Below the pieces are notes generated by a model, which was given only the letters and a program-made list of their open reading frames with translations, had not been told where the DNA came from and did not search any database. Of a stretch of DNA of 53,278 bases, positions 3,658 through 53,219 are shown one piece after another. Numbering within the stretch: position 1 is the stretch's first letter; each line of letters begins with the position of its first letter. The position numbers and the translations under genes were made by a program. This DNA comes from Nanobdellota archaeon. GTDB taxonomy: Archaea > Nanobdellota > Nanobdellia > Pacearchaeales > GW2011-AR1. Location: the NCBI GenBank assembly GCA_038043805.1, contig JBBTBG010000004.1, positions 1 through 53,278 on the forward strand, given 5' to 3'.

Positions 3658-3757
3658 TCTTTAAAGAATAAGATAGGCTATTTAAATCTTTCTAATGTAG
3701 TCACTAGTAAGAGATAACAATAATAAGATTTAAATACTTCAAAAGCCTGTAAAAAAT

Positions 3758-4180
3758 ATGAAAAAGACGCTGATGAAAGCAAGTCTTGCAGGTCTCCTCG
3801 GAATGGCATTGATAGCTGGAGCAGGCAAGCGCACATATGATCGTGTACATTCACGACCCTCTCCAGCGCTGGAGCAGCAGCTTTCTGGGAGCAACCTCTA
3901 CAGAGAAATTGCCTCTCAAAGCACACAATCTCCTCTCCAACGCGAGTTAAGAGGTCTGGTTACCGACTTTGTATACCCTTATATCCTTCACTGGAAAGCA
4001 GATCCTGAACTTAAAGAATATCTTAATACGAACTGGGTCGATGCCGCAACAGGCAAGCACAGAAAGTATACTGATACAGAGGGTGCAATCCTCTGGCATG
4101 TAGGATGCAATCCAACTACTCCTTCCATGAGTAAGGATTATGTTCTTGCGCAAGTCGGAGCTGCTCCGTTAAGAAAATAA
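3758..4180 (+). CDS. Small secreted hypothetical protein
   Basis: 140-aa ORF with signal-like N-terminus MKKTLMKASLAGLLGMALIAGAG. Confidence 0.55.
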   Translation: MKKTLMKASLAGLLGMALIAGAGKRTYDRVHSRPSPALEQQLSGSNLYREIASQSTQSPLQRELRGLVTDFVYPYILHWKADPELKEYLNTNWVDAATGKHRKYTDTEGAILWHVGCNPTTPSMSKDYVLAQVGAAPLRK

Positions 4181-5725: not shown

Positions 5726-6601
5726 GTGAATTTACTTACACGTCTTGGACGCTCTTTATCTTTTCTTAAAGCTGCAGCGCTTTCCACCATTCTCTTTTCC
5801 TCTTCTCTTCTTGCGCAAGAAAAATCTCAGAATGACCCAGATCAAGACGAATCAACCTATTTCCATTTATCTGTCCGAGATAACAAAGGTATGCCTGTTG
5901 ATTTTGAGCTTTCACCTTATCAGACCTATACTGCAGAGCTCTGGGGAGGGAAAAACTGGGGAAGCAGGCTTCCAACAGTTAATGTAGAAGGAGAGATCCG
6001 TGCAAGCGATGCTCTTCAAGTGAAAGAGGCTCTACGTCCTGATTCTTTATATGTTGTGCGAGGATTTCAGCAGGATTTCTTTTCCCCTAGAGATGAGGAT
6101 GTTGTGTCTGTTGACGCATATACAGTTGTTAATCAATTTGAAGGGTCACATTTCTCTCGTTCTTTAATTGTTAAAGATGCCTCAAAGTCATATCTGCCGC
6201 GCAGTTTGGGGTATGAGGGTCTTGTGGCAATTTATCCTTTTAAGGTAGAAACGAACGCGTTGCAGCATGTCTATTTAGATGCTAGGATAACCTCCCATTT
6301 CTTCGATGGAAGTTCTATGAAGAGAGATTCTGTTTTTGTTGCTCCTTCACATTTCTTTATCGTTCCTGAACCACGTCCAATGAAAACTAAACTTCTCATC
6401 TATTCTTTTGGTCAAGGATTTCCAAAGTTATTTGCTCCAGGCCATGGAACGCCTTTAACTTTAGAGTGTGCTTTTCAACTTGAAGGGCCTTGGAAAGATA
6501 TTACCACAAGCAGGGTTCATACTGACAACCCTTATGGAAACCTGAAATATGTAGATTATCGTACTGGACTTCCCGTAAGATTTTTTAGAATCAAGGAATG
6601 A
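5726..6601 (+). CDS. Secreted hypothetical protein
   Basis: 291-aa ORF with a GTG start and signal-like N-terminus ...AAALSTILFSSSLLAQE. Confidence 0.55.
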   Translation: MNLLTRLGRSLSFLKAAALSTILFSSSLLAQEKSQNDPDQDESTYFHLSVRDNKGMPVDFELSPYQTYTAELWGGKNWGSRLPTVNVEGEIRASDALQVKEALRPDSLYVVRGFQQDFFSPRDEDVVSVDAYTVVNQFEGSHFSRSLIVKDASKSYLPRSLGYEGLVAIYPFKVETNALQHVYLDARITSHFFDGSSMKRDSVFVAPSHFFIVPEPRPMKTKLLIYSFGQGFPKLFAPGHGTPLTLECAFQLEGPWKDITTSRVHTDNPYGNLKYVDYRTGLPVRFFRIKE

Positions 6602-6642
6602 CTATAATTCAAGGCGCAATGATGACTTCAAAGAGTACGAGA

Positions 6643-7608
6643 CTACTTATAATCTTTTCTGATAGGGGCAATTATTTTTTCTAGTTCTTCAATTACACTG
6701 CTTTTAAGATCCATTGGGTGGAGGTCGCCTTGAGAATATATTTTTTCGAGTTCTTCATAACTATTGATTGAGAGGTTTCCTCCAAATTTAACTGGTCTTT
6801 TTATTTCAATTTTATTAATTCTTGGGAAAATGATGAGCCTAGTGATTTGTAGCAGAGGGTTTTCCTTGGTTTCTTTTTCTGGACAGTAAGCGTTGTTAAT
6901 TGTTTTCTTAATCTCTTCATAACTATCAGTAACGCTGATTCCAGATCCAGGGATGCTCTTTGACATCTTTTGTCCAGGCCCTTTTAATGAGGTGATGAGT
7001 GGGATGTGTAGTGCGACAAAATTGTAATCTATAATTTTACTCATATCTTTACCCATCATATGTACTTTTCTTTGTTCCAACCCTCCAAGCGCGACATCTG
7101 CTCTGAGGTATTTTATATCTGCAATTTGCATCAATGGATACCAAAGCTGAGAGATAGTCGCGTTCTCTATATCTCTTGCGATTTCCTGCATGCTTCTCAA
7201 TCCTCTATTTATCGTTGAATTTTGGGACAATCTCATAATGTCCATTTGGTATTCTCTTTTAAACTGGAAATCGCTCCCAAGGACAATTTCAGCATCTATT
7301 CCTATCGCATTTATAGTTTTTCTCCAGTTTTCGACTTCTTTCTTTATTTCTTCTTCTCCACCTTTCCTATTGAGCATCGCATGAACATCTGCTAGAAGTA
7401 TGACTACTTTAAATCCTGCTTTTTCGAGATCTATGAGTTTGGTAATAGTCACAAAATGCCCTAAATGCATAGGGCCATTAGGTTCATATCCACAGTAGAC
7501 TCTTGGATGTTGTTTCTTTTTGAGAAGTGTAACAAGATCTTCCTGTGTAACAATTTCTTCCGTATTTCTCTTAATAAGCTCGAATCTTTCTTCTGCTGAC
7601 TTCTTCAT
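6643..7608 (-). CDS. tyrS: Tyrosyl-tRNA synthetase, archaeal type
   Basis: HIGH-type motif PMHLGH and a KMSKS motif. The C-terminal block KRPVKFGGNLSINSYEELEKIYSQGDLHPMDLKSSVIEELEKIIAPIRK closely parallels the remembered Methanocaldococcus TyrRS sequence. Length of 321 aa fits. Confidence 0.92.
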   Translation of the reverse strand: MKKSAEERFELIKRNTEEIVTQEDLVTLLKKKQHPRVYCGYEPNGPMHLGHFVTITKLIDLEKAGFKVVILLADVHAMLNRKGGEEEIKKEVENWRKTINAIGIDAEIVLGSDFQFKREYQMDIMRLSQNSTINRGLRSMQEIARDIENATISQLWYPLMQIADIKYLRADVALGGLEQRKVHMMGKDMSKIIDYNFVALHIPLITSLKGPGQKMSKSIPGSGISVTDSYEEIKKTINNAYCPEKETKENPLLQITRLIIFPRINKIEIKRPVKFGGNLSINSYEELEKIYSQGDLHPMDLKSSVIEELEKIIAPIRKDYK

Positions 7609-8174: not shown

Positions 8175-8903
8175 ATGGTTCCTCCTGAGTCGGATAACAA
8201 TATTTATAAACCACAAATAATTCACAGTAGCAGTATGCTCCCCGGTGATCTAAAAGGGTCGCCGGATGAGTCTTTATTTTCTGCAAAGGAAAATTCTCAT
8301 TGTAACGAGACTCTTGTTTTTATTGATGAAGGTTTTCTTGCTAAGTTGAGTAAACATCTTGGGAAAGGCAGATATGTTAAGTTTGATAAGTTTCTTTTTG
8401 CAAAACTGCTTGCTCAAAAAGAAAGGTTAGACTGTCGCCATATTTTTTATTATACTGCACCACCGTTCCAGTCAAATCGACCTACACGTGACGAGGAACT
8501 ACGCAAGAGAGGATATGATCGTTTTATTAAAAGCTTAAAGAAATCCTCATTAATTACGATACGCGAGGGAAGATGCCAGAGACTTTTGATTGACAGCCAT
8601 CTTATTTTTAAGCAGAAATATGTAGATGTTCTACTTACTATTGACTTGATGAGAATTCCATTAAAATATCCTCAGATTCAAAGAGTTATTTTAATTTCAT
8701 CAGATAGCGATTTTGTTCCAGCGATTCATGCTCTCAAAGAATTTGGTATCAAAGTGATTCTCTATACTTTTTATGAGAAAAAAAGAAACACTAACTTTTC
8801 AAGGAGCAACGATCTTGTGAAAGCAGTGCATAAGTATGTTCTTTTAACTCAGCAAGATTTTCTTAATGCTGAAAAGACGAGGAGGAGCGAGCATGCGTCA
8901 TAA
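8175..8903 (+). CDS. NYN/LabA-like (PIN-related) domain protein
   Basis: Motifs VFIDEGFL and ISSDSDFVPAIHALKEFGIKVILY are typical of the NYN (DUF88/LabA) fold. The start codon is uncertain. Confidence 0.65.
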   Translation: MVPPESDNNIYKPQIIHSSSMLPGDLKGSPDESLFSAKENSHCNETLVFIDEGFLAKLSKHLGKGRYVKFDKFLFAKLLAQKERLDCRHIFYYTAPPFQSNRPTRDEELRKRGYDRFIKSLKKSSLITIREGRCQRLLIDSHLIFKQKYVDVLLTIDLMRIPLKYPQIQRVILISSDSDFVPAIHALKEFGIKVILYTFYEKKRNTNFSRSNDLVKAVHKYVLLTQQDFLNAEKTRRSEHAS

Positions 8904-10020
8904 GACCATCTATCTCGACAGCTCCGCAACTGCACCTGTTTTTCCTGAGGTGATAAAAACAATGCTCCCGTATTTTAAGGAGAAGTACGGCAATCCCTCG
9001 TCACCGCATCAGATGGGTGAAGAAGTACGAGAATCAGTTGAAGACGCTCGAAAGAAGCTCGCCTTAGAGATGGGATGTAAATCAAATGAAGTTATTTTTA
9101 CTTCGGGAGGGACAGAGGCAAATATGCTTGCTTTCAGAGGTCTTGCATCATCTTTAGCATATGAAAAGAAGAAAAAGATTGTCATCAGCGCGATTGAGCA
9201 CTCTTCAGTTTTTGATGTGTGTGATGCCTTGGAAAAACAAGGATTTGAAGTAGTAGAGATAGGTGTATATAAGCAAGGAATCCTGAGATGGGAAGAACTA
9301 GAGAAGGCAGTTGATAGTGATACCCTTATGGTATCAATTATTCATGGAAATAATGAAATAGGAACATTACAAGATATTCATCGCATTGGTATGCTATGCA
9401 AGAAGCGAGGCGTACTGTTTCATACCGATGCTGTGCAATCGTTTGGAAAGGAAATTATTAAAGTACATGATTGGCATATCGACTTATTGACTGCCTCTGC
9501 TCATAAACTGGGAGGACCAAAAGGAATCGGGTTATTGTATGTGTGTTCTGGAGTTTCATTACAACCTTTGATTTTAGGAAGTCAAGAAAGAAGACTACGC
9601 GGGGGAACAGAAAATGTTGCAAGCATTGTAGGTTTTGCTAAGGCAGTGGAGATTGTAAATAGAAAAAGAGGAAAGATGAAACCTCTCCAGTCATTTTTTA
9701 TGCAACGTATAGAAAAGTTAGGTGGAAGAATTACAGGATCGCACGAACAGCGCTTAGAAGATCATGTCTCTGCTGTTTTTCCAGGTGTGAATGCAGAGGT
9801 ACTTGTCTTACGCCTTTCGCAGAAAGGAGTAATGTGTTCTACCAAAAGTGCATGCCTTGATAAAGGTGCGAAAGAAAGTCGCGTGCTTAGAGCCACAGGC
9901 TTATCTGGAGAAGAAATTAGAGGAGCAGTGAGATTCGGATTACATCCAAATCTTACAAAAAAAGATATTTTAAGTACTTTAAAGATCTTAGAAAAATGTC
10001 TTAAAGAAAAAGTTTATTAA
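8893..10020 (+). CDS. Cysteine desulfurase (class V aminotransferase, NifS/IscS-like)
   Basis: YLDSSATAPV N-terminus, a PLP-lysine motif SAHKLGGPKGIG, and C-terminal SACL-type Cys (STKSACL). I take the start at the internal ATG (MRHKTIYLD) rather than the track start at 8866. Confidence 0.85.
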   Translation: MRHKTIYLDSSATAPVFPEVIKTMLPYFKEKYGNPSSPHQMGEEVRESVEDARKKLALEMGCKSNEVIFTSGGTEANMLAFRGLASSLAYEKKKKIVISAIEHSSVFDVCDALEKQGFEVVEIGVYKQGILRWEELEKAVDSDTLMVSIIHGNNEIGTLQDIHRIGMLCKKRGVLFHTDAVQSFGKEIIKVHDWHIDLLTASAHKLGGPKGIGLLYVCSGVSLQPLILGSQERRLRGGTENVASIVGFAKAVEIVNRKRGKMKPLQSFFMQRIEKLGGRITGSHEQRLEDHVSAVFPGVNAEVLVLRLSQKGVMCSTKSACLDKGAKESRVLRATGLSGEEIRGAVRFGLHPNLTKKDILSTLKILEKCLKEKVY

Positions 10021-17312: not shown

Positions 17313-17477
17313 TTGAAGCATGCCCCGACCGACATTTATACCATCATGGAATTCAAGAGAGATACGCATGATACAAATTTAGTACAATATTCTTGTAGCG
17401 GTTGAGGTTTATATATTTTGTAGTCGATAGAAATGCAAAAGCAACTCGGATCATGCCAACCTTAATGTCAAGAGAAA

Positions 17478-17819
17478 TTAGTAATTGAACCTTCTTTCGT
17501 AATCTTTATGAGTCATCCATTCAAGAATAACGCTCACAATTTTTACTTCATTGCCTACAATAGTATACAGCAAGCGCCAAGCGTTAGGCAAGTCGTACTT
17601 CCATAATGCAGATATTCCATATTTTGAAATATATTCTTGTGGAATAAGTCTTTCTGGAACACGTACTCCAGCTCTCAAAGGATTCTCAAGTAAGTCTTTC
17701 TTAGCTCTTTCAATAAATTTGTATAACTCTTTATCTTCAAACGTTCCTTCTTGTAATGTTTCAAATGATTCTTTTAATTTGGTATTAGCAAAAGTCACTT
17801 CTTTAATACGTTCGTTCAT
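17478..17819 (-). CDS. RelE/ParE-superfamily toxin-like protein
   Basis: C-terminal LWKYDLPNAWRLLYTIVGNEVKIVSVILEWMTHKDYERRF fits the RelE/ParE core pattern. 4-nt overlap with the upstream small gene. Confidence 0.6.
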   Translation of the reverse strand: MNERIKEVTFANTKLKESFETLQEGTFEDKELYKFIERAKKDLLENPLRAGVRVPERLIPQEYISKYGISALWKYDLPNAWRLLYTIVGNEVKIVSVILEWMTHKDYERRFNY

Positions 17820-18091
17820 TTTTTGAGAAGTCCCTCTGCTTCAAGCTTTCGAATGAATGCAGGGTTCCAAATCCAAACAATCTTGTCTTCTGAATCAGTC
17901 ACAATTTTATTGCTTTGTTCAAGGTAGTCTAAGACCACTAAGTAAGTTTGCCACATCACTTTCTTTGGCAACGATTTCCATAACTCTGTTCGATTGTAAG
18001 CTCCCGAAGATTGCTCGATAGCGCGTTCTATCATCAATACTGTTTCAAGGGTAGGGGAGCGTGCAAAGAGGTTTTCTTTCACGACTTGCAT
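17816..18091 (-). CDS. Small winged-helix protein, candidate cognate antitoxin
   Basis: 91-aa ORF translationally coupled (ATGA overlap) to the RelE-like gene. Confidence 0.5.
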   Translation of the reverse strand: MQVVKENLFARSPTLETVLMIERAIEQSSGAYNRTELWKSLPKKVMWQTYLVVLDYLEQSNKIVTDSEDKIVWIWNPAFIRKLEAEGLLKK

Positions 18092-18100
18092 ATTCTATTG

Positions 18101-18116
18101 TATATCAAGTGATATA
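18101..18116. promoter_or_regulatory. Palindromic operator candidate TATATCA-AG-TGATATA upstream of the RelE-like operon
   Basis: 7-nt inverted arms lie between the start codon (18091) and the TATA-like ATATATAAA on the minus strand. Confidence 0.4.
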
Positions 18117-18202
18117 TAAATGTTTTGGTTTATTTGATTGTAAAAGAGTCGAAATGCAAAGGATATCTTTAAGGGATAGGGAAGTTCGTGACAATCCGAG
18201 GC

Positions 18203-19081
18203 TTACATTTTATAATCTTGGATATATCTCTTAAAAAACCAATTAAGAAATGGAGAATCATCCCTCTTGAGCTGGCTTCTTTCAAGTGAGGTGTAATAGC
18301 TATTTCTTTTAGTATATGGAATATCCAACATAGGATATCCATGTTTATGGAAGACAAAGTTCATCATAAGTCTAGATATTCTGCCATTTCCATCTCCAAA
18401 GGGATGTATTGTTACCCATTTTAGATGTACTAAAGCAGCCAACTCGACAGGATTTAGTTTATCTTTACTTTTATTATACCAGTCAAAGAAGTCTTTAATG
18501 AGAAAATCCAATTCGGCAGGCATGGGAGGAACATATTTACTTAAGGAAATGCCTACTTGATAATTTCTAATTCTTCCAGCAGCATCCTGCTTTGTTTTTT
18601 CAAATAATTTTTTATGCCAATATAATACTATTTGCAAAGAAAGCTCTTTTTTATATGATAACATCTCATGAAATACTCTATTATGTTCTTCTGCTTCTAT
18701 TACATCATTTATGGGCTTCTCATTGGGAGTTATTCCTCTTTCAAGTAAATTTGAAGTGTCTTTCAAGCTCAAAGTTGAACCCTCTATCTTTTGAGTGTTA
18801 TAAGTGAATTTTACTGCAAAAGTTTCTCTTTGTTTAGCTCGAGAAGAAGGAGGCGTTATCTTTTGCTCTTGAAGATATCTTTTCTTTATTTGCTCAAAGT
18901 CCGAGAACCACTTTTCTTTATAGAGCTCGATAACGAATTGCCTTTTTATCTTATCAATGTCTTTAGGTATCTCTTTTCCAAGATATTTCTCTTTCTTAAT
19001 AACTTTATTGCCTTCCCGCACACTATGTTCAAGATAGTAATATGTCTGTTCTCCCGTTTTCTTTTCTCTTATAGTTACCAT
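18203..19081 (-). CDS. Fic domain protein (AMPylase family)
   Basis: Canonical Fic motif HPFGDGNGRISR. Confidence 0.9.
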   Translation of the reverse strand: MVTIREKKTGEQTYYYLEHSVREGNKVIKKEKYLGKEIPKDIDKIKRQFVIELYKEKWFSDFEQIKKRYLQEQKITPPSSRAKQRETFAVKFTYNTQKIEGSTLSLKDTSNLLERGITPNEKPINDVIEAEEHNRVFHEMLSYKKELSLQIVLYWHKKLFEKTKQDAAGRIRNYQVGISLSKYVPPMPAELDFLIKDFFDWYNKSKDKLNPVELAALVHLKWVTIHPFGDGNGRISRLMMNFVFHKHGYPMLDIPYTKRNSYYTSLERSQLKRDDSPFLNWFFKRYIQDYKM

Positions 19082-19242
19082 AGATTACCTTGCCACTACA
19101 TATTTATAAATGCTTGTATTATAGCTATTTTGTAGGGGTAAGAATTTTCGAGAATGAAAGGATATTTTGGCATAGATCGATTGGTTCATTATAACGGAAA
19201 TCTTAGTCTTATTATAACTACAGAGTAGTAAATAAAGAAAGA

Positions 19243-19250
19243 TTTATATA
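19243..19250 (+). promoter_or_regulatory. TATA box (TTTATATA)
   Basis: Ends 22 nt upstream of the ATG at 19272. Confidence 0.5.
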
Positions 19251-19271
19251 GGCATTCTCTTTTTTTTAAAT

Positions 19272-19952
19272 ATGCCGCTCACAAGAATTGGACCTGGTTC
19301 CTGGAAGGACTGTCTGGAGCAAATCGTAAGAAACAATAGAAAAGTCGTTAGTTCTAGAGAGATAACCCAAGAGTTATTGAATCAAGGAGTAGGGAAAAAC
19401 ATTTATGATAAACCCATTTGGTTAGCAGAATGTACTTATGCTGTAGGTAACCAGATTTTTTTGGCGAGAGATAAGTTGAATGTTTTTTATGATCCTAAGA
19501 TCAAAGATTTGCTTCAAAAGAGCCATATTGTTTTAAATTCATTGGATCATAATTCAGTAAAAATCAACAATCTTTATTTTGGAAAAGTTATAGAAAATAT
19601 TGCAGGACAGGATATGAAAAAACCTATTGAAGAAAGAAGAGTATTACATGCATTCAATATAGATTTATCTAGTCCCACCACATACACGTTATCAACAGAT
19701 TCGTTTGCAGATGATCCGATAATGGTCTGGTATGCTGGAGGTTCGAAAGTAGCTAAAAGGTTAGGATTATATTTAAAGACTGAAGTTCCTGACAAATTTA
19801 GAACTGACTCGTTCCGTGTGGAATTACCTCCTGCGATAGTTTGTGTTTTAAATAATTTTATGGGTATAAGTTGGATAGATCTTGGCACTCGAACAATTGA
19901 CTGTGAGGGAAGAAAAGAAGGATATACTTTAATGAATCTTAAAAAGGGTTGA
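19272..19952 (+). CDS. Hypothetical protein
   Basis: 226-aa ORF with a consensus TATA box upstream. Confidence 0.55.
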   Translation: MPLTRIGPGSWKDCLEQIVRNNRKVVSSREITQELLNQGVGKNIYDKPIWLAECTYAVGNQIFLARDKLNVFYDPKIKDLLQKSHIVLNSLDHNSVKINNLYFGKVIENIAGQDMKKPIEERRVLHAFNIDLSSPTTYTLSTDSFADDPIMVWYAGGSKVAKRLGLYLKTEVPDKFRTDSFRVELPPAIVCVLNNFMGISWIDLGTRTIDCEGRKEGYTLMNLKKG

Positions 19953-20000
19953 TTTTCTATAGATATACATAATGCCCACTAAAATCGCAAGATATGTATA

Positions 20001-20073
20001 TGCCCCGTCCGGGATTCGCACCCGGGTTTTGGCCGCGAAAGGGCCACGTACTTGACTGCTATACTAACAGGGC
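20001..20073 (-). tRNA. tRNA-Glu (UUC)
   Basis: Hand-folded cloverleaf. Acceptor GCCCTGT/ACGGGGC, D stem GTAT/GTAC, anticodon stem TGGCC/GGCCA with loop CTTTCGC, T arm CCGGG-TGCGAAT-CCCGG, discriminator A. No encoded CCA. Confidence 0.88.
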
Positions 20074-21135: not shown

Positions 21136-22131
21136 TCATTTCTCTCTACTGAGATAGTCATAAATGGTTCTTGAAACAGCACTCATAACACGGTCGGATT
21201 CTTCTTGCGTGCTGTTTTTACTCATCATGCACAAAAGGTAGTTCTTTTTAGGAAGATAAATAATGCCGCAGTCATGGAAGATTTTTTCTTCCCTGTTGAT
21301 ACCTACTTTATGTGCTACTTTAACGTCTGGAGGCAGGCCTGCAGGAATTTGGGAGGTAAATTCAGTATGAAGAAGCAAAGAAAGTGCAAATTCTGAGAAG
21401 GGTCGACGGAGGTAGCTCGAGATATAGAGGGAGCGGAAGAGGTTAATATATTCTTTAGGGGTTACAGTTGTAATGTCATTCTCAGGAGGAGGCAGACCAA
21501 GGGAAGCCATGGTTTCTAGATAGTCTTCATAGGAGGTATATCTGCTTGCAAGGGCACGGGACAGCCGTATTATCCGATTGTTCAATCATGACTTTAAGTA
21601 GGTCTTTAAGTTGCATTTGATGTCCTGAACCTTTTTTATACAATGTTCCTGAAGATGGATCAAGATCTTCTTCTCGAAGAGTTATTGTTTCATCAAGAGA
21701 AAGATCTCCTCTTTCCACTTTCTTAAGGATCGTCATTGCTAAGGGAACTTTGAAAAGGCTTTGAGGAATAAATTTTTCTCTTTCATTATATCCTACCCAC
21801 GCACCTGATTGAAGGTCTTCATAATATAATCCATAGAAACCACTAACGTTCTTGGTAAGGAGAGGAACAAGCATCGATTTTAAGTCAGCATATGAAAGGT
21901 CATACGATTTCTGTCTTTCTACAAACTCTTGAGCATTGAGCAATGCGATATCTGGGAAATGAGTTTAAAATCTCCTTTATCTGGAGAAGAAGTCTTGGAA
22001 AACACATACAAGGTAGTAGCAATAAAAAAAAGATTAAGGATCAAAAGAATAGAAATGATCAGAAGCGCCCTTTCCTTAAACACCCTAATAATACGTAGTT
22101 CAGAAACAACAGGAAAAGAAGGAGTATCCAC
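21136..22131 (-). pseudogene. Class A beta-lactamase-like serine hydrolase split by frameshift(s)
   Basis: SxxK (SLFK) and SDN (EQSDNTA) motifs lie in ORF 21527-21943. The frame breaks right after SDNTA, and the remainder (LSRALASRY...KVAHKVGI, a KTG-like motif) continues in ORF 21136-21585. A TM-anchor ORF (21919-22131) overlaps the 5' part in a third frame. Confidence 0.6.
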
Positions 22132-27542: not shown

Positions 27543-28109
27543 TTAATGTGTTTTGAGGTAATTAAGAAGATCGGGACTTAACAGTGGTTTTCCTTTAACG
27601 AGTACATACCTATAAGGGAGAATAGTTGATTCTATTTTATTAATCTTTATTTCAATTTCATCTTTGAAAGAGATTTTTTCGAAAGGAGTTCCTTCAATAA
27701 TCTTCTTTACAGTATAGACTGCATTGTCTGTGCTCATTTGCATATTACCAATATTGAATGCAGGCATCTGCTTGAGAAACTGAGTAAGCTCTTCTCTTGT
27801 TCTTTTTTGAGGAGGATTGTCTCCAAGAATACCTCCTAGGACAAAATATTGGAATTGAGATGAGTTTTGAGGTGTTAATAATTGAGGGGCTTCGGGATCG
27901 AGAATACAGGGATTTTTTAGTTTAATCTTTTTTACTGATTCAGATAATACTCTTCCATAAGCCGAAAGCATCTCTTGATCTTTATTCTTAGAAACATTAG
28001 TAAACCACAAGTTATTTTTCCCTACTATTTTAGAAATATACCTATATTCAATAAAAGTCCACTCTCCTATTTCAGGTTCTAAGTGTTCAATGATAAAAGT
28101 CTTCTTCAT
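27543..28109 (-). CDS. SPOUT-fold SAM-dependent methyltransferase of the DUF431/Sfm1 type
   Basis: N-terminal FIIEHLEPEIGEWTFIEY and YFVLGGILGDNPPQKRT parallel the remembered yeast Sfm1 blocks (IIEHME..., FVFGGILGDHPPRDRT). Confidence 0.7.
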   Translation of the reverse strand: MKKTFIIEHLEPEIGEWTFIEYRYISKIVGKNNLWFTNVSKNKDQEMLSAYGRVLSESVKKIKLKNPCILDPEAPQLLTPQNSSQFQYFVLGGILGDNPPQKRTREELTQFLKQMPAFNIGNMQMSTDNAVYTVKKIIEGTPFEKISFKDEIEIKINKIESTILPYRYVLVKGKPLLSPDLLNYLKTH

Positions 28110-28161
28110 CTATTAAAAATGAAGAGAAGGTTAATAAAGCATATGCTCATTTTTTGTACAG

Positions 28162-28243
28162 GCCCAGATCGCATAATGGCATTGCGCCGCACTCGAAATG
28201 CGGTTTCCGCAAGGATTTCGAGGTTCGATTCCTCGTCTGGGCG
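28162..28243 (+). tRNA. tRNA-Ser (CGA), class II with a long variable arm
   Basis: Acceptor GCCCAGA/TCTGGGC, 3-bp D stem GCA/TGC with GG in the loop, anticodon stem CCGCA/TGCGG with loop CTCGAAA, 15-nt variable arm, T arm CGAGG-TTCGATT-CCTCG, discriminator G. Confidence 0.88.
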
Positions 28244-28323
28244 CTCGGAATCGAAGCGCTCACAGAGCAAAGCTCCGTGGCGACTTTTGCGAAGTATTCG
28301 CTCAAGTATTCCTCTTCTAGACG
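28244..28323 (+). repeat. Family B tRNA-linked module: 64-nt conserved two-hairpin insert (28244-28307) plus a degenerate repeat of the tRNA-Ser 3' end (28308-28323)
   Basis: About 52 of 65 hand-aligned columns are identical to the sequence following tRNA-Val (53085-53148, minus strand). ATTCCTCTTCTAGACG matches tRNA positions 58-73 (ATTCCTCGTCTGGGCG) at 13/16. The repeat period is exactly 80 nt. Confidence 0.75.
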
Positions 28324-28347
28324 TAGAAAAATATATCAAAAAAAAGA

Positions 28348-28683
28348 TTAATCTCCTCCTCCGCCTCCACCATCTCCACCACATCCACCTCCGCTATCTC
28401 CCCAATCGCTTCCACCACCAAAGTATGTAAAGAACGAGGATGAATCGCAGCTTCCCGAATATCTTGAAGACCTTCTGTTTAGTTTGGCAAGTTTGTAGAT
28501 ACAGGTTCCTACAACTAGAGCACATAGTCCCATTGTTGCGCCTAGGCATATTTTTTCACCGAGTGTCAATCCATCAGCTTGTTCTGCCTTTGCCTCAAGG
28601 TTACTCTGCGCATACACAGGGAGCGTAAGTACTGCAGTTATACCTACTTGACAAGATCTACTAATAAATTCTTGGAGTTTCAT
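28348..28683 (-). CDS. Bitopic membrane protein with a Gly/Cys-rich tail ending in GGGGGGD (paralog B)
   Basis: I take the start at MKLQEFISR (28683), 1 nt after the stop of paralog A. It shares LPxYxQSNL, GLT(L/I)GE, a TM segment and a C-terminal CGG.DGGGGGGD with the upstream gene. Confidence 0.6.
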   Translation of the reverse strand: MKLQEFISRSCQVGITAVLTLPVYAQSNLEAKAEQADGLTLGEKICLGATMGLCALVVGTCIYKLAKLNRRSSRYSGSCDSSSFFTYFGGGSDWGDSGGGCGGDGGGGGGD

Positions 28684-52829: not shown

Positions 52830-53123
52830 ATGTCGCGATTATGGGGAAGTATCCGTGAAGTAGGATCTCTAGCATTATGGTCAGGATATATGATCTACGA
52901 AGCAGGCGTGGACCTTCTCAGCATTACCTACAATCGACTCAAAAACTACCGTATTTCTTATATGAAAGAAAAAGATCTTTTTATTCCAACTATCTATCTC
53001 CCTTCAGGAAGAGACGATCATCGTGCCCTGCCTCTATTGAATCTCATCTATAAAGAAAAAGAAAGAACTGGCCCCACAGGGAATACTTTAGCGAATACTT
53101 CGCGAAAGTCACCACGGAACTAA
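52830..53123 (+). CDS. Hypothetical small protein; the 3' end reads into the family B repeat
   Basis: 97-aa ORF with a hydrophobic N-terminus. The last ~18 codons (TGPTGNTLANTSRKSPRN) are encoded by the tRNA-Val 3' repeat and the 64-nt module, so the C-terminus is doubtful. Confidence 0.4.
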   Translation: MSRLWGSIREVGSLALWSGYMIYEAGVDLLSITYNRLKNYRISYMKEKDLFIPTIYLPSGRDDHRALPLLNLIYKEKERTGPTGNTLANTSRKSPRN

Positions 53124-53148
53124 GTTCTGTGAGTGCGTTCGATTCAGA
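53069..53148 (-). repeat. Family B tRNA-linked module: 64-nt conserved insert (53085-53148) plus an exact 16-nt repeat of the tRNA-Val 3' end (53069-53084)
   Basis: On the minus strand, ATTCCCTGTGGGGCCA occurs at 53164-53149 (inside the tRNA) and again at 53084-53069, 80 nt apart. The intervening 64 nt is homologous to 28244-28307. Confidence 0.75.
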
Positions 53149-53219
53149 TGGCCCCACAGGGAATCGAACCCCGGCGTCCTCCACGTGAAAGAGGCGTTCT
53201 GCCACTAGACTATAGGGCC
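53149..53219 (-). tRNA. tRNA-Val (CAC)
   Basis: Acceptor GGCCCTA/TGGGGCC, anticodon stem CCTCT/GGAGG with loop TTCACGT, T arm CGGGG-TTCGATT-CCCTG, discriminator A. The D stem is weak (one C-A mismatch) and the variable loop is 4 nt. Confidence 0.78.

Follow-up and report, generated by a model that had tools for sequence, protein, structure and literature searches.

The usual guests of tRNA genes (viruses, plasmids, genomic islands and casposons) are kilobases long and bring their own integrase, whereas the unit described here is 64 bp and non-coding. Casposons generate 14–15-bp duplications at the 3′ ends of tRNA-Pro and tRNA-Leu genes and require the T-loop segment of the target, and in vitro the casposase integrates random double-stranded ends, casposon-derived single-stranded ends and single-stranded RNA (PMC5137440, PMC6977970). 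The unit resembles the family 2 casposons of Aciduliprofundum boonei and Methanosarcina mazei in being archaeal, in leaving the tRNA intact and in its site, the 3′ end of a tRNA gene next to the T-loop palindrome needed by their enzyme. Casposons make a duplication with a fixed length of 14–15 bp, and in vitro the casposase accepts short donors that have no terminal inverted repeats. Casposons are, however, ~8–20 kb in length, whereas the module is 64 bp and has neither Cas1, PolB nor terminal inverted repeats; its 16-bp duplication in the window lies wholly inside the tRNA (positions 58–73), while those of casposons overlap just its last 4–5 bp. Elements of tyrosine recombinases (archaeal SSV-type and pNOB8-type elements, genomic islands, tycheposons and CIMEs) are similar in that repeats run from the T-loop to the tRNA 3′ end and the tRNA is regenerated; in their accretion arrays later insertions push older ones outward and leave partial tRNA copies, and members without an integrase exist. 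They differ in being kilobases long, in carrying or deriving from an integrase module and in having an element-borne repeat specific to one tRNA. The 64-bp module, by contrast, occurs with repeats specific to Ser, Val and Gly, of which two have a length of exactly 16 nt, and neither the scanned open reading frames of the window nor the annotated flanks of core and insert loci yielded an integrase gene.

The window, meaning the whole 53,278-nt stretch of DNA that was analysed, is an entire contig from a groundwater metagenome-assembled genome (MAG) of the Nanoarchaeota (DPANN). Two intact tRNA genes serve as insertion targets: tRNA-Ser(CGA) at 28162–28243 on the + strand (ARAGORN; Rfam RF00005, 54.8 bits) and tRNA-Val(CAC) at 53149–53219 on the − strand (ARAGORN; Rfam, 52.8 bits). 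Both are canonical and complete upstream of the insert according to ARAGORN and Rfam, and the 5′ acceptor strand of tRNA-Ser, GCCCAGA, pairs correctly with the first repeat copy when read from the sequence. The 64-nt module occupies 28244–28307 (Ser, +) and 53148–53085 (Val, −). As the preliminary description had proposed, the two modules are homologous, with 84% identity by blastn and two compensating 1-nt indels within the first 16 nt. At the Ser locus, tRNA positions 58–73 (ATTCCTCGTCTGGGCG, 28228–28243, +), which form the functional tRNA 3′ end, are followed exactly 80 nt downstream by a decaying 13/16 copy (ATTCCTCTTCTAGACG, 28308–28323, +); position, module length and copy were all as first described. 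That description did not mention that the Val module is likewise bracketed, by positions 58–73 of its own tRNA (ATTCCCTGTGGGGCCA, 53149–53164, −) and an exact 16/16 copy at 53069–53084 (−), with identity breaking off sharply at both sides; this second copy is seen in four independent assemblies that cover the complete locus. The upstream repeat is the working tRNA 3′ end and the downstream repeat a decaying leftover, and the perfect, sharply bounded Val repeat marks that insertion as recent. No further repeat copies were found downstream of Ser and Val in the window.

Both modules share one layout, in which a variable 3-nt spacer is followed by a 9-nt inverted T-loop copy, then by a linker of 3 nt and a core of ~50 nt that contains two hairpins. 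In the Ser module the left end (28244–28255, +) consists of the spacer CTC and GGAATCGAA, the reverse complement of T-arm positions 54–62; that of the Val module (53137–53148, −) consists of TCT and GAATCGAAC, the reverse complement of positions 53–61. The module had been said to begin with GGAATCGAA, and the exact T-arm complement is indeed there, but behind a spacer whose 3 nt differ between copies. Together, T-arm and inverted copy form a 9–12-bp inverted repeat surrounding the acceptor strand; in a relative, L045 (GCA_964202455.1), this palindrome is perfect over 12 bp, with a 10-nt spacer and a DNA fold z of −4.1. The inverted T-loop motif stands at offset +77 after tRNA-Ser in L045, as it does in the window, and it also begins a cassette in L045 that carries a DUF2569 gene. 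Because the inverted copy is also the start of this protein-coding cassette, it looks like a DNA-level feature of the cassette left end, and the earlier suggestion that it folds back on the T arm as RNA is unsupported as a function.

The conserved core spans 28256–28307 for Ser (+; RNAfold; covariance model R1, 80.7 bits) and 53085–53136 for Val (−; RNAfold; R1, 79.8 bits). RNAfold places hairpin 1 of the Ser core at 28257–28282 (+), with 10 pairs, a bulged T, an A·C mismatch and the loop AAA, and hairpin 2 at 28283–28307 (+), where an outer ACTT/AAGT stem encloses GCGAA-GTA-TTCGC; the Val counterparts lie at 53135–53110 and 53109–53085 (−). Both hairpins had been recognised before, but hairpin 1 is longer than was then thought, hairpin 2 has the additional 4-bp outer extension, and the A·C mismatch is conserved. 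A search for terminal inverted repeats by hand and with blastn-short gave, as the best end-to-end match, a weak one of ~6–7 out of 10–11 positions around CGAA. Readings of the core as a C/D-box, H/ACA or K-turn RNA were rejected by eye for want of box motifs, and its origin from a pseudo-tRNA or a reverse-strand tRNA was dismissed on inspection.

Deleting any 80-nt frame within the repeat restores tRNA-Val, as would be expected if the 80 nt (module plus one repeat) were an archaeal tRNA intron of the T-loop region cut at a bulge-helix-bulge, or a remnant left by a tRNA gene that was split or permuted. Introns transpose among the tRNA genes of Thermoproteales, where homologous 50–80-nt inserts sit at the T-loop region of different tRNAs; the homologous inserts in our two tRNA genes recall this, and RNAfold allows pairing between the second repeat and the 5′ strand of the T-stem. 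The module differs in having no bulge-helix-bulge in any frame: 0 of 19 frames at either locus give a 4-bp central helix together with both flanking helices, and frame 59/60, which keeps the T-stem, retains 1 of 4 pairs in the central helix. The tRNA is already whole and unspliced upstream of the insert. Read from the sequence, the downstream Ser copy is unable to form the acceptor stem, and it could not complete a tRNA because two acceptor-stem mismatches and one T-stem mismatch would result. One copy of the core, in the H43-bin213 MAG (L033), is inverted, that is, antisense to the tRNA. The intron reading is close to refuted, and we leave it only a very slight probability.

Related cores were found in three other genomes, giving 5 distinct copies in 4 genomes, 2 of them in ~60 kb of sequence from the window's genome. 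In L045 the core lies at the orthologous tRNA-Ser, displaced 547 nt outward by the DUF2569 cassette, which carries its gene without the hairpin core. In L033 it lies beside tRNA-Gly, and in L094 cores form a tandem array with a period of 90 nt and no adjoining tRNA; in both of these genomes the inverted T-loop is on the other side of the core. The family is therefore found at no fewer than three different tRNAs, namely Ser, Val and Gly. The R1 covariance scan scored core copies at 41–81 bits and nothing else above 20 bits in ~315 kb of related DNA, and no homology was found between the proteins of L033 or L094 and the window. An empty site, for which the preliminary description had called, exists at the orthologous tRNA-Ser of L048, and in the same genome a tRNA-Ser(GGA) that shares the T-loop is unoccupied. 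Our search for an empty tRNA-Val site yielded one homolog of a neighbouring gene, on a contig that ends before the tRNA, and CTP-transferase homologs that are not syntenic. Unrelated short inserts bounded by 13–16-nt tRNA-end repeats lie behind two tRNA-Pro genes in L138/L139, and stacked tRNA-repeat-insert-repeat-insert arrays occur at tRNA-Pro(TGG) in L138 and tRNA-Ser in L045. What first appeared to be a fourth repeat copy in L045, with a match to TCAAGTATTCC, was attributed to chance, both lying within the conserved N-terminal coding part of a patatin gene.

These observations also dispose of the idea that the pattern is an artefact of assembly, a chance similarity or a local duplication. 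In several assemblies the contigs end beside tRNA-Ser and tRNA-Val, as an artefact might produce. Independent assemblies nevertheless agree in sequence: four are identical base for base at the Val locus through the module, a fifth contig stopping just within the downstream repeat, and two carry the same sequence at the Ser locus. Two conserved module patterns each occur twice in the window, far in excess of the 0.00–0.01 occurrences expected from shuffled sequence, and the three other contigs with core homologs come from different samples and show compensatory changes. We consider this explanation refuted, with a negligible probability. The preliminary description had offered a choice between a miniature element that targets tRNA genes and a small RNA linked to them, and that pair of options is supported: similarity extends to cores at tRNA-Ser, at tRNA-Gly and in an array in other genomes instead of being confined to two locally duplicated loci, and the module, which has no match in Rfam or in phage, plasmid or IMG/VR sequences, is not the terminal part of any known larger element.

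We next consider constraint at the orthologous Ser loci of the window and L045. Identity is 90% for tRNA-Ser(CGA) (74/82) and 90% for the core (45/50), compared with 52% at four-fold sites of the neighbouring gene and 62% in the downstream repeat (Fisher p = 0.018, or 0.0004 when spacer and inverted T-loop are added). All 3 spacer positions differ, and 0 of 12 differ in the inverted T-loop motif plus GCG linker. The core thus equals the tRNA in conservation, while decay of the downstream repeat is close to neutral. The downstream Ser copy of L045, ATTTCTCGTCTGAGGG, also matches at 13/16, and its three substitutions differ from those in the window copy, ATTCCTCTTCTAGACG; the Ser copies therefore decayed independently. 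Compensatory double changes were found at 6 of the 10 pairs of hairpin 1, with 97.9% of cells paired and 0 of 500 shuffles equalling the observed pattern, a covariation signal that rests on few sequences because just five distinct copies are known. Strong constraint and covariation together allow that the core may be made as RNA.

The same conservation, equal to that of the tRNA, and the covariation of hairpin 1 could indicate that the module is not mobile at all and is a vertically inherited host small RNA or 3′-trailer element, the downstream tRNA-end copy serving as an RNA structure or processing signal. In agreement with this, the 5′ GGAAT and 3′ ATTCC are able to close a three-way junction (in one of several predicted folds), and T-runs follow the downstream repeat of Val in the window and of Ser in L045. 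A processing signal is difficult to reconcile with a downstream repeat that decays nearly neutrally, and does so independently in two lineages. Three different tRNAs have modules with their own repeats, the L048 ortholog and tRNA-Ser(GGA) have none, the core is inverted with respect to the tRNA in L033 and without a tRNA in L094, and no Rfam family matches. Within one genome the Val and Ser copies diverge by 16% although the Val repeat is perfect, which implies that the Val copy arrived separately. We judge vertical inheritance of a non-mobile element decidedly improbable.

If the module is mobile, the repeats bear on the enzyme. Repeats of 16 nt flank Val (16/16), Ser (13/16), copy 3 in L045 (13/16) and tRNA-Pro(CGG) in L138 (16/16); others are 13–17 nt long, and one, the perfect repeat flanking the DUF2569 cassette of L045, is 24 nt. 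The two perfect 16-nt repeats have different coordinates, positions 58–73 for Val in the window and positions 64–73 plus 6 nt of trailer in L138, and repeats also extend into the lineage-specific, non-conserved trailer in L033 (+4). Target duplication predicts both repeats that reach into the trailer and the presence of Ser-, Val- and Gly-specific repeats around a single cassette family. The preliminary description had seen in the Ser repeat the footprint of integrase-mediated insertion into a tRNA gene; repeats specific to each tRNA are indeed expected under target duplication, but a classic tyrosine-type integrase is slightly disfavoured by the evidence.

Such an integrase could nonetheless account for the module as a satellite of tyrosine-recombinase integrative elements. 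The repeat would then be an element-borne identity block (attL/attR), and the inverted T-loop copy would be the core binding site on the element's side; the 64 nt would be the cargo-less attP arms, either mobilised in trans or left by an excised larger tandem partner. Repeats that flank archaeal tRNA genes are mostly made by tyrosine integrases, and those described here begin in or near the T-loop (positions 58, 59, 61, 62 and 64) and run to or past the tRNA 3′ end, as those of T-loop-class integrases do. The palindrome formed around the acceptor strand by T-arm and inverted copy, 9–12 bp in length and perfect over 12 bp in L045, matches the layout of core sites used by tyrosine recombinases. 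In L045 the module and the DUF2569 cassette share the start TGAGGAATCGAA, like homologous P′ arms, which on this reading explains the 24-nt repeat; accretion beside the tRNA is as in tycheposons, and the inverted core of L033 could arise by recombination between inverted sites. Several observations weigh on the other side. The identity block must have been swapped for Ser, Val and Gly within one cassette family, lineage-specific trailer bases lie inside the repeats (L138 and L033), and two perfect repeats share a length of exactly 16 nt although they cover different coordinates. As a substrate for recombination, a double-stranded circle of 80 bp is implausibly small; the cassettes of L138 have no inverted T-loop copy after the repeat, the core is absent from the virus and plasmid collections searched, and the scanned ORFs and annotated flanks gave no integrase gene. 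A tyrosine-recombinase satellite is, in our estimate, possible but doubtful.

Our searches for an enzyme were extended to relatives. None of 50 ORFs of the window (Pfam; ~50 of 53 kb) matched Cas1, PolB, a transposase, an integrase or a Phage_integrase-type domain. For the flanks of L045 and L138, precomputed Pfam annotation lists no confident Cas1, transposase or integrase hit, and no tyrosine integrase was present among the six L033 and four L094 ORFs scanned. A weak rve match was seen in L135, a core-less relative. Rfam returned tRNAs only for the whole window at gathering score, and nothing credible for 28100–28400 at E up to 10. Phage, plasmid and IMG/VR collections contained neither the core nor a free or circular form of it, a blastn search of phages and plasmids with the Val unit gave no match, and no autonomous transposon partner for the module was found. 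An 18-base pattern searched in GTDB genomes, JGI metagenomes and IMG/VR produced mostly chance matches in bacterial coding genes, the real ones being L033 and L094 only; a stricter module pattern had no matches in the same kind of scan, and the sole match of a looser hairpin-1/2 pattern, in a GC-rich phage gene, was set aside as chance.

Based on these comparisons, we tentatively propose, at somewhat less than an even chance, that the module is a miniature insertion cassette, non-coding and non-autonomous, which reaches tRNA gene 3′ ends by means of a trans-acting, staggered-cut integrase, with the core as possible small-RNA cargo. The cassette would rank among the smallest mobile elements with site specificity seen so far. 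Provided from elsewhere, the integrase would recognise the T-arm palindrome and nick the two target strands ~16 bp apart, in the window at 57/58 and 73/74; the cassette would be joined between the nicks, and gap repair would duplicate the 16 bp. Casposases, which are Cas1-family integrases, insert at tRNA 3′ ends in this manner, and we favour staggered 16-bp cuts of a casposase-like enzyme over a tyrosine integrase. Fresh insertions would land next to the tRNA and shove older cassettes outward, building small arrays. Several features fit a casposase-like enzyme poorly: terminal inverted repeats are missing and the first 3 nt vary, unlike the ends of transposons and casposons; repeat lengths are not constant, given the 24-nt repeat and others of 13–17 nt; the arrangement of T-arm and inverted copy is that of tyrosine-recombinase core sites; repeats from T-loop to 3′ end are the usual mark of tyrosine integrases; no Cas1, transposase or integrase gene was found in the scanned ORFs or annotated flanks; and the proposal accounts only in part for L033 and L094, where the inverted T-loop lies on the other side of the core. 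The core may be cargo held by selection, most simply a small RNA of ~50–65 nt, which in the window could be co-transcribed with the tRNA and freed by tRNA 3′ processing. This part of the proposal is the weaker one, and the antisense orientation of the core in L033 speaks against a small RNA.

A more far-reaching version of this proposal, which we consider improbable, is that small CRISPR-like arrays are anchored at the 3′ ends of tRNA genes in these Nanoarchaeota. The T-arm would serve as a 'leader' for a Cas1-family integrase encoded elsewhere, short pieces without terminal inverted repeats would be added at the tRNA-proximal end with ~16 bp duplicated per addition, and the 64-nt module would be a preferred or selected insert.

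Two further classes of small elements invite comparison with the proposed cassette. MITEs and PATEs are similarly tiny, non-coding, hairpin-rich and non-autonomous, occur as several diverged copies and in some cases have target duplications; the module differs from them by its lack of terminal inverted repeats, its strict T-loop/3′-end preference, an unusually long 16-bp duplication and a very low copy number. The resemblance to integron cassettes and attC sites is limited to two traits: one-gene or empty cassettes gather at a fixed site, and compensatory changes preserve the structure of a hairpin whose helix keeps an imperfection. Here, in contrast, there is no IntI-type integrase among the scanned ORFs and annotated flanks, R′/R″ core sites were not recognised, the anchor is a tRNA, and the gene cassette of L045 has no hairpin core.

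The duplication in the window is precise, recent and target-specific, and both genes have it at the same 16 positions of the tRNA. If it was made by a Cas1-like enzyme that cuts in a staggered way, these loci would be natural cases of short DNA filed beside a 'leader' with duplication of a short repeat, the step that has been proposed as the link between casposons and CRISPR adaptation; CRISPR-like arrays, if they do exist at these tRNAs, would represent a living stage between the integration of casposons and the acquisition of CRISPR spacers. If the enzyme is instead a tyrosine integrase, the module would be the smallest integrative satellite known and would raise the question of how one unit switches tRNA specificity. 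For annotators, partial tRNA copies 64–130 nt behind a tRNA are genuine features in these genomes. With either enzyme, the tRNA 3′ ends would be a hotspot of genome change in the very reduced genomes of DPANN archaea, and the conserved 50-nt structured core may be a new small RNA.

The window is one complete contig of 53,278 nt (GC content ~38%) from a MAG that NCBI labels Nanoarchaeota archaeon (DPANN), and its sequence is also present in the Hainich groundwater assembly ERZ1292631. It contains four tRNA genes: Glu, Pro, Ser(CGA) and Val(CAC). tRNA-Ser(CGA) ends at 28243 on the + strand, and directly behind it lie, as the preliminary description held, a 64-nt module (28244–28307, +) and then ATTCCTCTTCTAGACG, a 13/16 copy of tRNA positions 58–73 exactly 80 nt downstream of the original. 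The 64 nt following tRNA-Val(CAC) (53219–53149, − strand), described earlier as homologous, proved to be 84% identical to the Ser module; two 1-nt indels close to the start compensate each other. Val positions 58–73 are copied 16/16 after the module, and the match breaks off sharply at both edges. Two conserved module patterns each occur exactly twice in the window, compared with 0.00–0.01 expected.

The module consists, in order, of a 3-nt spacer that is variable (CTC in Ser, TCT in Val), a 9-nt inverted T-loop copy, a 3-nt linker and a core of ~50 nt. The 9-nt part repeats the T-loop region in exact reverse complement (GGAATCGAA in Ser, GAATCGAAC in Val); it was thought to begin the module, but the variable spacer precedes it. 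Both hairpins noticed earlier reappear in the predicted fold of the core. The stem of hairpin 1 comprises 10 pairs together with a bulged T and a central A.C mismatch, and its loop is 3 nt long; hairpin 2 is composed of an outer stem, ACTT/AAGT, and GCGAA-GTA-TTCGC.

Chance and artefact were rejected as explanations. The Val locus through the module is identical in four independent assemblies from different samples, and the Ser locus in two, which excludes an assembly artefact. A bulge-helix-bulge intron was also rejected, since no frame works and the tRNA is complete without splicing, as was a split or permuted tRNA. Read from the sequence, the upstream Ser repeat alone can complete the acceptor stem with the 5′ strand; with the downstream copy, two acceptor-stem mismatches and one T-stem mismatch would result. 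The upstream copy is therefore the functional end of the tRNA, and its downstream counterpart a relic. Several independent assemblies break within ~60–90 nt of tRNA-Ser or tRNA-Val (window end, 53278; starts of contigs L042 and L044; end of contig L140), suggesting that repeats or strain variation at these flanks fragment assemblies. A 97-aa ORF (52830–53123, +), called as a gene in public annotations, has its last 18 codons (~55 nt) on the reverse strand of the Val downstream repeat and module, and has either been re-tailed by the insertion or is spurious.

We searched for the core in GTDB (one genome per species), JGI metagenomes and IMG/VR with one strict pattern. Matches were mostly due to chance; among those listed, two are real. 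In L033, a contig of another Nanoarchaeota MAG, the core adjoins tRNA-Gly in the opposite orientation; along the tRNA strand, tRNA-Gly positions 54–73 and 4 trailer bases recur as a second copy, into which the inverted core is set at 60/61. The other, L094, is a JGI metagenome contig; no tRNA is present on it, and it ends in a perfect tandem array (2223–2414; period 90, 2.1 copies) in which each unit combines the core with a T-loop-like palindrome. The first unit of the array, AAGTATTCGCTCAAGT, is partial and exactly 16 nt long, and the array runs off the contig end just past a thioredoxin gene; it could have arisen by repeated insertion, be an integrated multimer or reflect an assembly loop. 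A covariance model built from the five distinct core copies on which the evidence rests scores them at 41–81 bits and finds nothing else above 20 bits in ~315 kb of related DNA. A known integrated element or a duplication confined to the two window loci, both considered at the outset, find no support: the core and module resemble nothing in Rfam, phage or plasmid collections, so Rfam family membership was rejected, and the core recurs in L033, L094 and the relative L045.

Orthologous tRNA-Ser loci in relatives were located through the neighbouring SFM1-like methyltransferase gene. The tRNA-Ser(CGA) site of L048 (69% SFM1-like protein identity) is empty, providing the unoccupied site that had been sought; for tRNA-Val, a search for an empty site yielded none. 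In L045 (78% identity; 8673–9331, minus strand), the order behind tRNA-Ser is TGA-GGAATCGAAC and a ~520-nt cassette with one DUF2569 gene antisense to the tRNA, then a second tRNA-end copy, the module, and a third copy, ATTTCTCGTCTGAGGG (13/16), which closes the locus. The DUF2569 cassette is bounded by a perfect 24-nt repeat consisting of tRNA 62–73 plus TGAGGAATCGAA. Hairpin 1 of the L045 module is intact, and a 50-nt two-hairpin insertion lies exactly in the loop of hairpin 2.

One cassette family is found at three different tRNAs (Ser, Val and Gly), and in each case the repeats match the tRNA concerned; tRNA-Ser(GGA) of the same genome has the same T-loop and is unoccupied. The perfect repeat marks the Val insertion as recent, yet its module is 16% different from the one behind tRNA-Ser in this genome and so derives from another source copy. 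The Ser insertion is old: its downstream repeats in the window and L045 carry three substitutions apiece, different ones. Together with the empty site, the tRNA-specific repeats support the earlier proposal of a miniature tRNA-targeting element, and we consider the mini-cassette family very probably real and mobile.

The core is under constraint. Across the five copies 97.9% of hairpin-1 cells are paired, a value reached by 0 of 500 shuffles, and slid controls gave 30–39%. Compensatory double changes affect 6 of 10 pairs, with none one-sided, the helix imperfection is retained in all copies, and hairpin 2 is almost invariant in sequence. All hairpin-1 substitutions are Watson-Crick to Watson-Crick, so an RNA and a single-stranded DNA hairpin, and the strand, are indistinguishable. 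Between the window and L045, identity is 52% at four-fold sites of the adjacent gene, 90% in tRNA-Ser, 90% in the core (45/50, with 3 of 5 differences in the hairpin-1 loop), 12/12 in the inverted T-loop plus linker, 0/3 in the spacer and 10/16 in the downstream repeat (Fisher, core vs downstream repeat, p = 0.018; 0.0004 when spacer and inverted T-loop are included). The core and inverted T-loop copy are thus maintained at the tRNA-Ser locus. Intragenomic homogenisation cannot account for this, because the Ser and Val copies differ.

Short-range tRNA-end repeats occur at 6 of ~17 distinct tRNA loci inspected in these archaea, where calculation predicts ~0.003 chance matches per 300 nt for a 13-mer with ≤2 mismatches. 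In the relative L138/L139 (63% SFM1 identity), two unrelated inserts rich in hairpins, ~127 and ~105 nt long, stand behind tRNA-Pro(TGG) (L138 7627–7965; L139 alike), and a copy of the tRNA 3′ part closes each of them. tRNA-Pro(CGG) (L138 8917–9075; L139 alike) has a perfect 16-nt repeat with a period of 79 nt, made up of positions 64–73 and six trailer bases; its 63-nt insert begins with a sense copy of the T-loop. By sequence, none of these inserts is related to the core found in the window. In L033, a tRNA containing a long intron (3745–3925; 160-nt Rfam match, missed by ARAGORN) has at +15 an inverted copy of its own T-arm, CAAGTGAATCGA, with no core and no repeat; inverted T-arm copies behind tRNAs therefore also exist without a cassette. 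In the window, tRNA-Glu has a degenerate copy of its 3′ end, AATGTCGGTCGGGGCA (13/16; chance expectation 0.06), 2.7 kb downstream, directly abutting the end of an M48 peptidase gene. Between tRNA-Glu and this copy (17321–20073, minus strand) lie a Fic/DOC gene and two ORFs without a Pfam match; the stretch may represent an integrated element that has decayed and lacks an integrase. Also in the window, a Beta-lactamase2-family gene (21136–21943, −) is divided into two overlapping ORFs (138 and 149 aa) matching the N- and C-terminal profile halves; its counterpart in the relative L047 is intact (255 aa), and either a frameshift that turned the gene into a pseudogene or an error in sequencing probably explains the split.

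Two mechanisms of insertion fit most of the data. We give slightly less than an even chance to staggered cutting of the target, in which gap repair would then duplicate ~16 bp of the tRNA end. This directly explains Ser-, Val- and Gly-specific repeats in one cassette family, repeats reaching into the non-conserved trailer, and the exact 16-nt length of both perfect repeats despite their different coordinates. Casposases offer a precedent: they generate 14–15-bp duplications at the 3′ ends of tRNA-Pro and tRNA-Leu, require the adjacent T-loop segment, and in vitro insert random double-stranded ends, casposon-derived single-stranded ends and ssRNA (PMC5137440, PMC6977970). Against staggered cuts, the cassette has no terminal inverted repeats and its first 3 nt are variable, and the DUF2569 cassette has a 24-nt repeat, 8–12 nt of which may be the shared left end of the cassette. 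We also know of no casposase gene for these genomes. Insertion by a tyrosine integrase, which we regard as rather unlikely, would account for repeats from T-loop to 3′ end, its usual mark, and for the 9–12-bp palindrome that the T-arm and its inverted copy form around the acceptor strand; accretion beside tRNAs is known for tycheposons. However, a mini-element would need three identity-block swaps, an 80-bp double-stranded circle is implausible, and no such integrase was in view among window ORFs scanned against Pfam or in the annotated flanks of L045 and L138. The L033 and L094 layouts (inverted T-loop on the opposite flank of the core, tandem array, 16-nt partial first unit) are only partly accounted for. 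Separately, L135, a contig of a relative from the same aquifer, encodes a 284-aa protein (6238–7092) with a weak rve (DDE integrase) match, ~1 kb from the SFM1 gene and 1.8 kb from a tRNA-Asp that has neither repeat nor core.

Since cassettes of the same architecture hold genes (DUF2569) or unrelated hairpins, the core is dispensable for insertion. A/T-rich, putatively TATA-like stretches lie ~22–25 nt upstream of hairpin 1 in L033 and L094. The conservation of the core suggests that it may have a function of its own, the simplest candidate being a small RNA, which in the window would be co-transcribed with the tRNA and released through tRNA 3′ processing.
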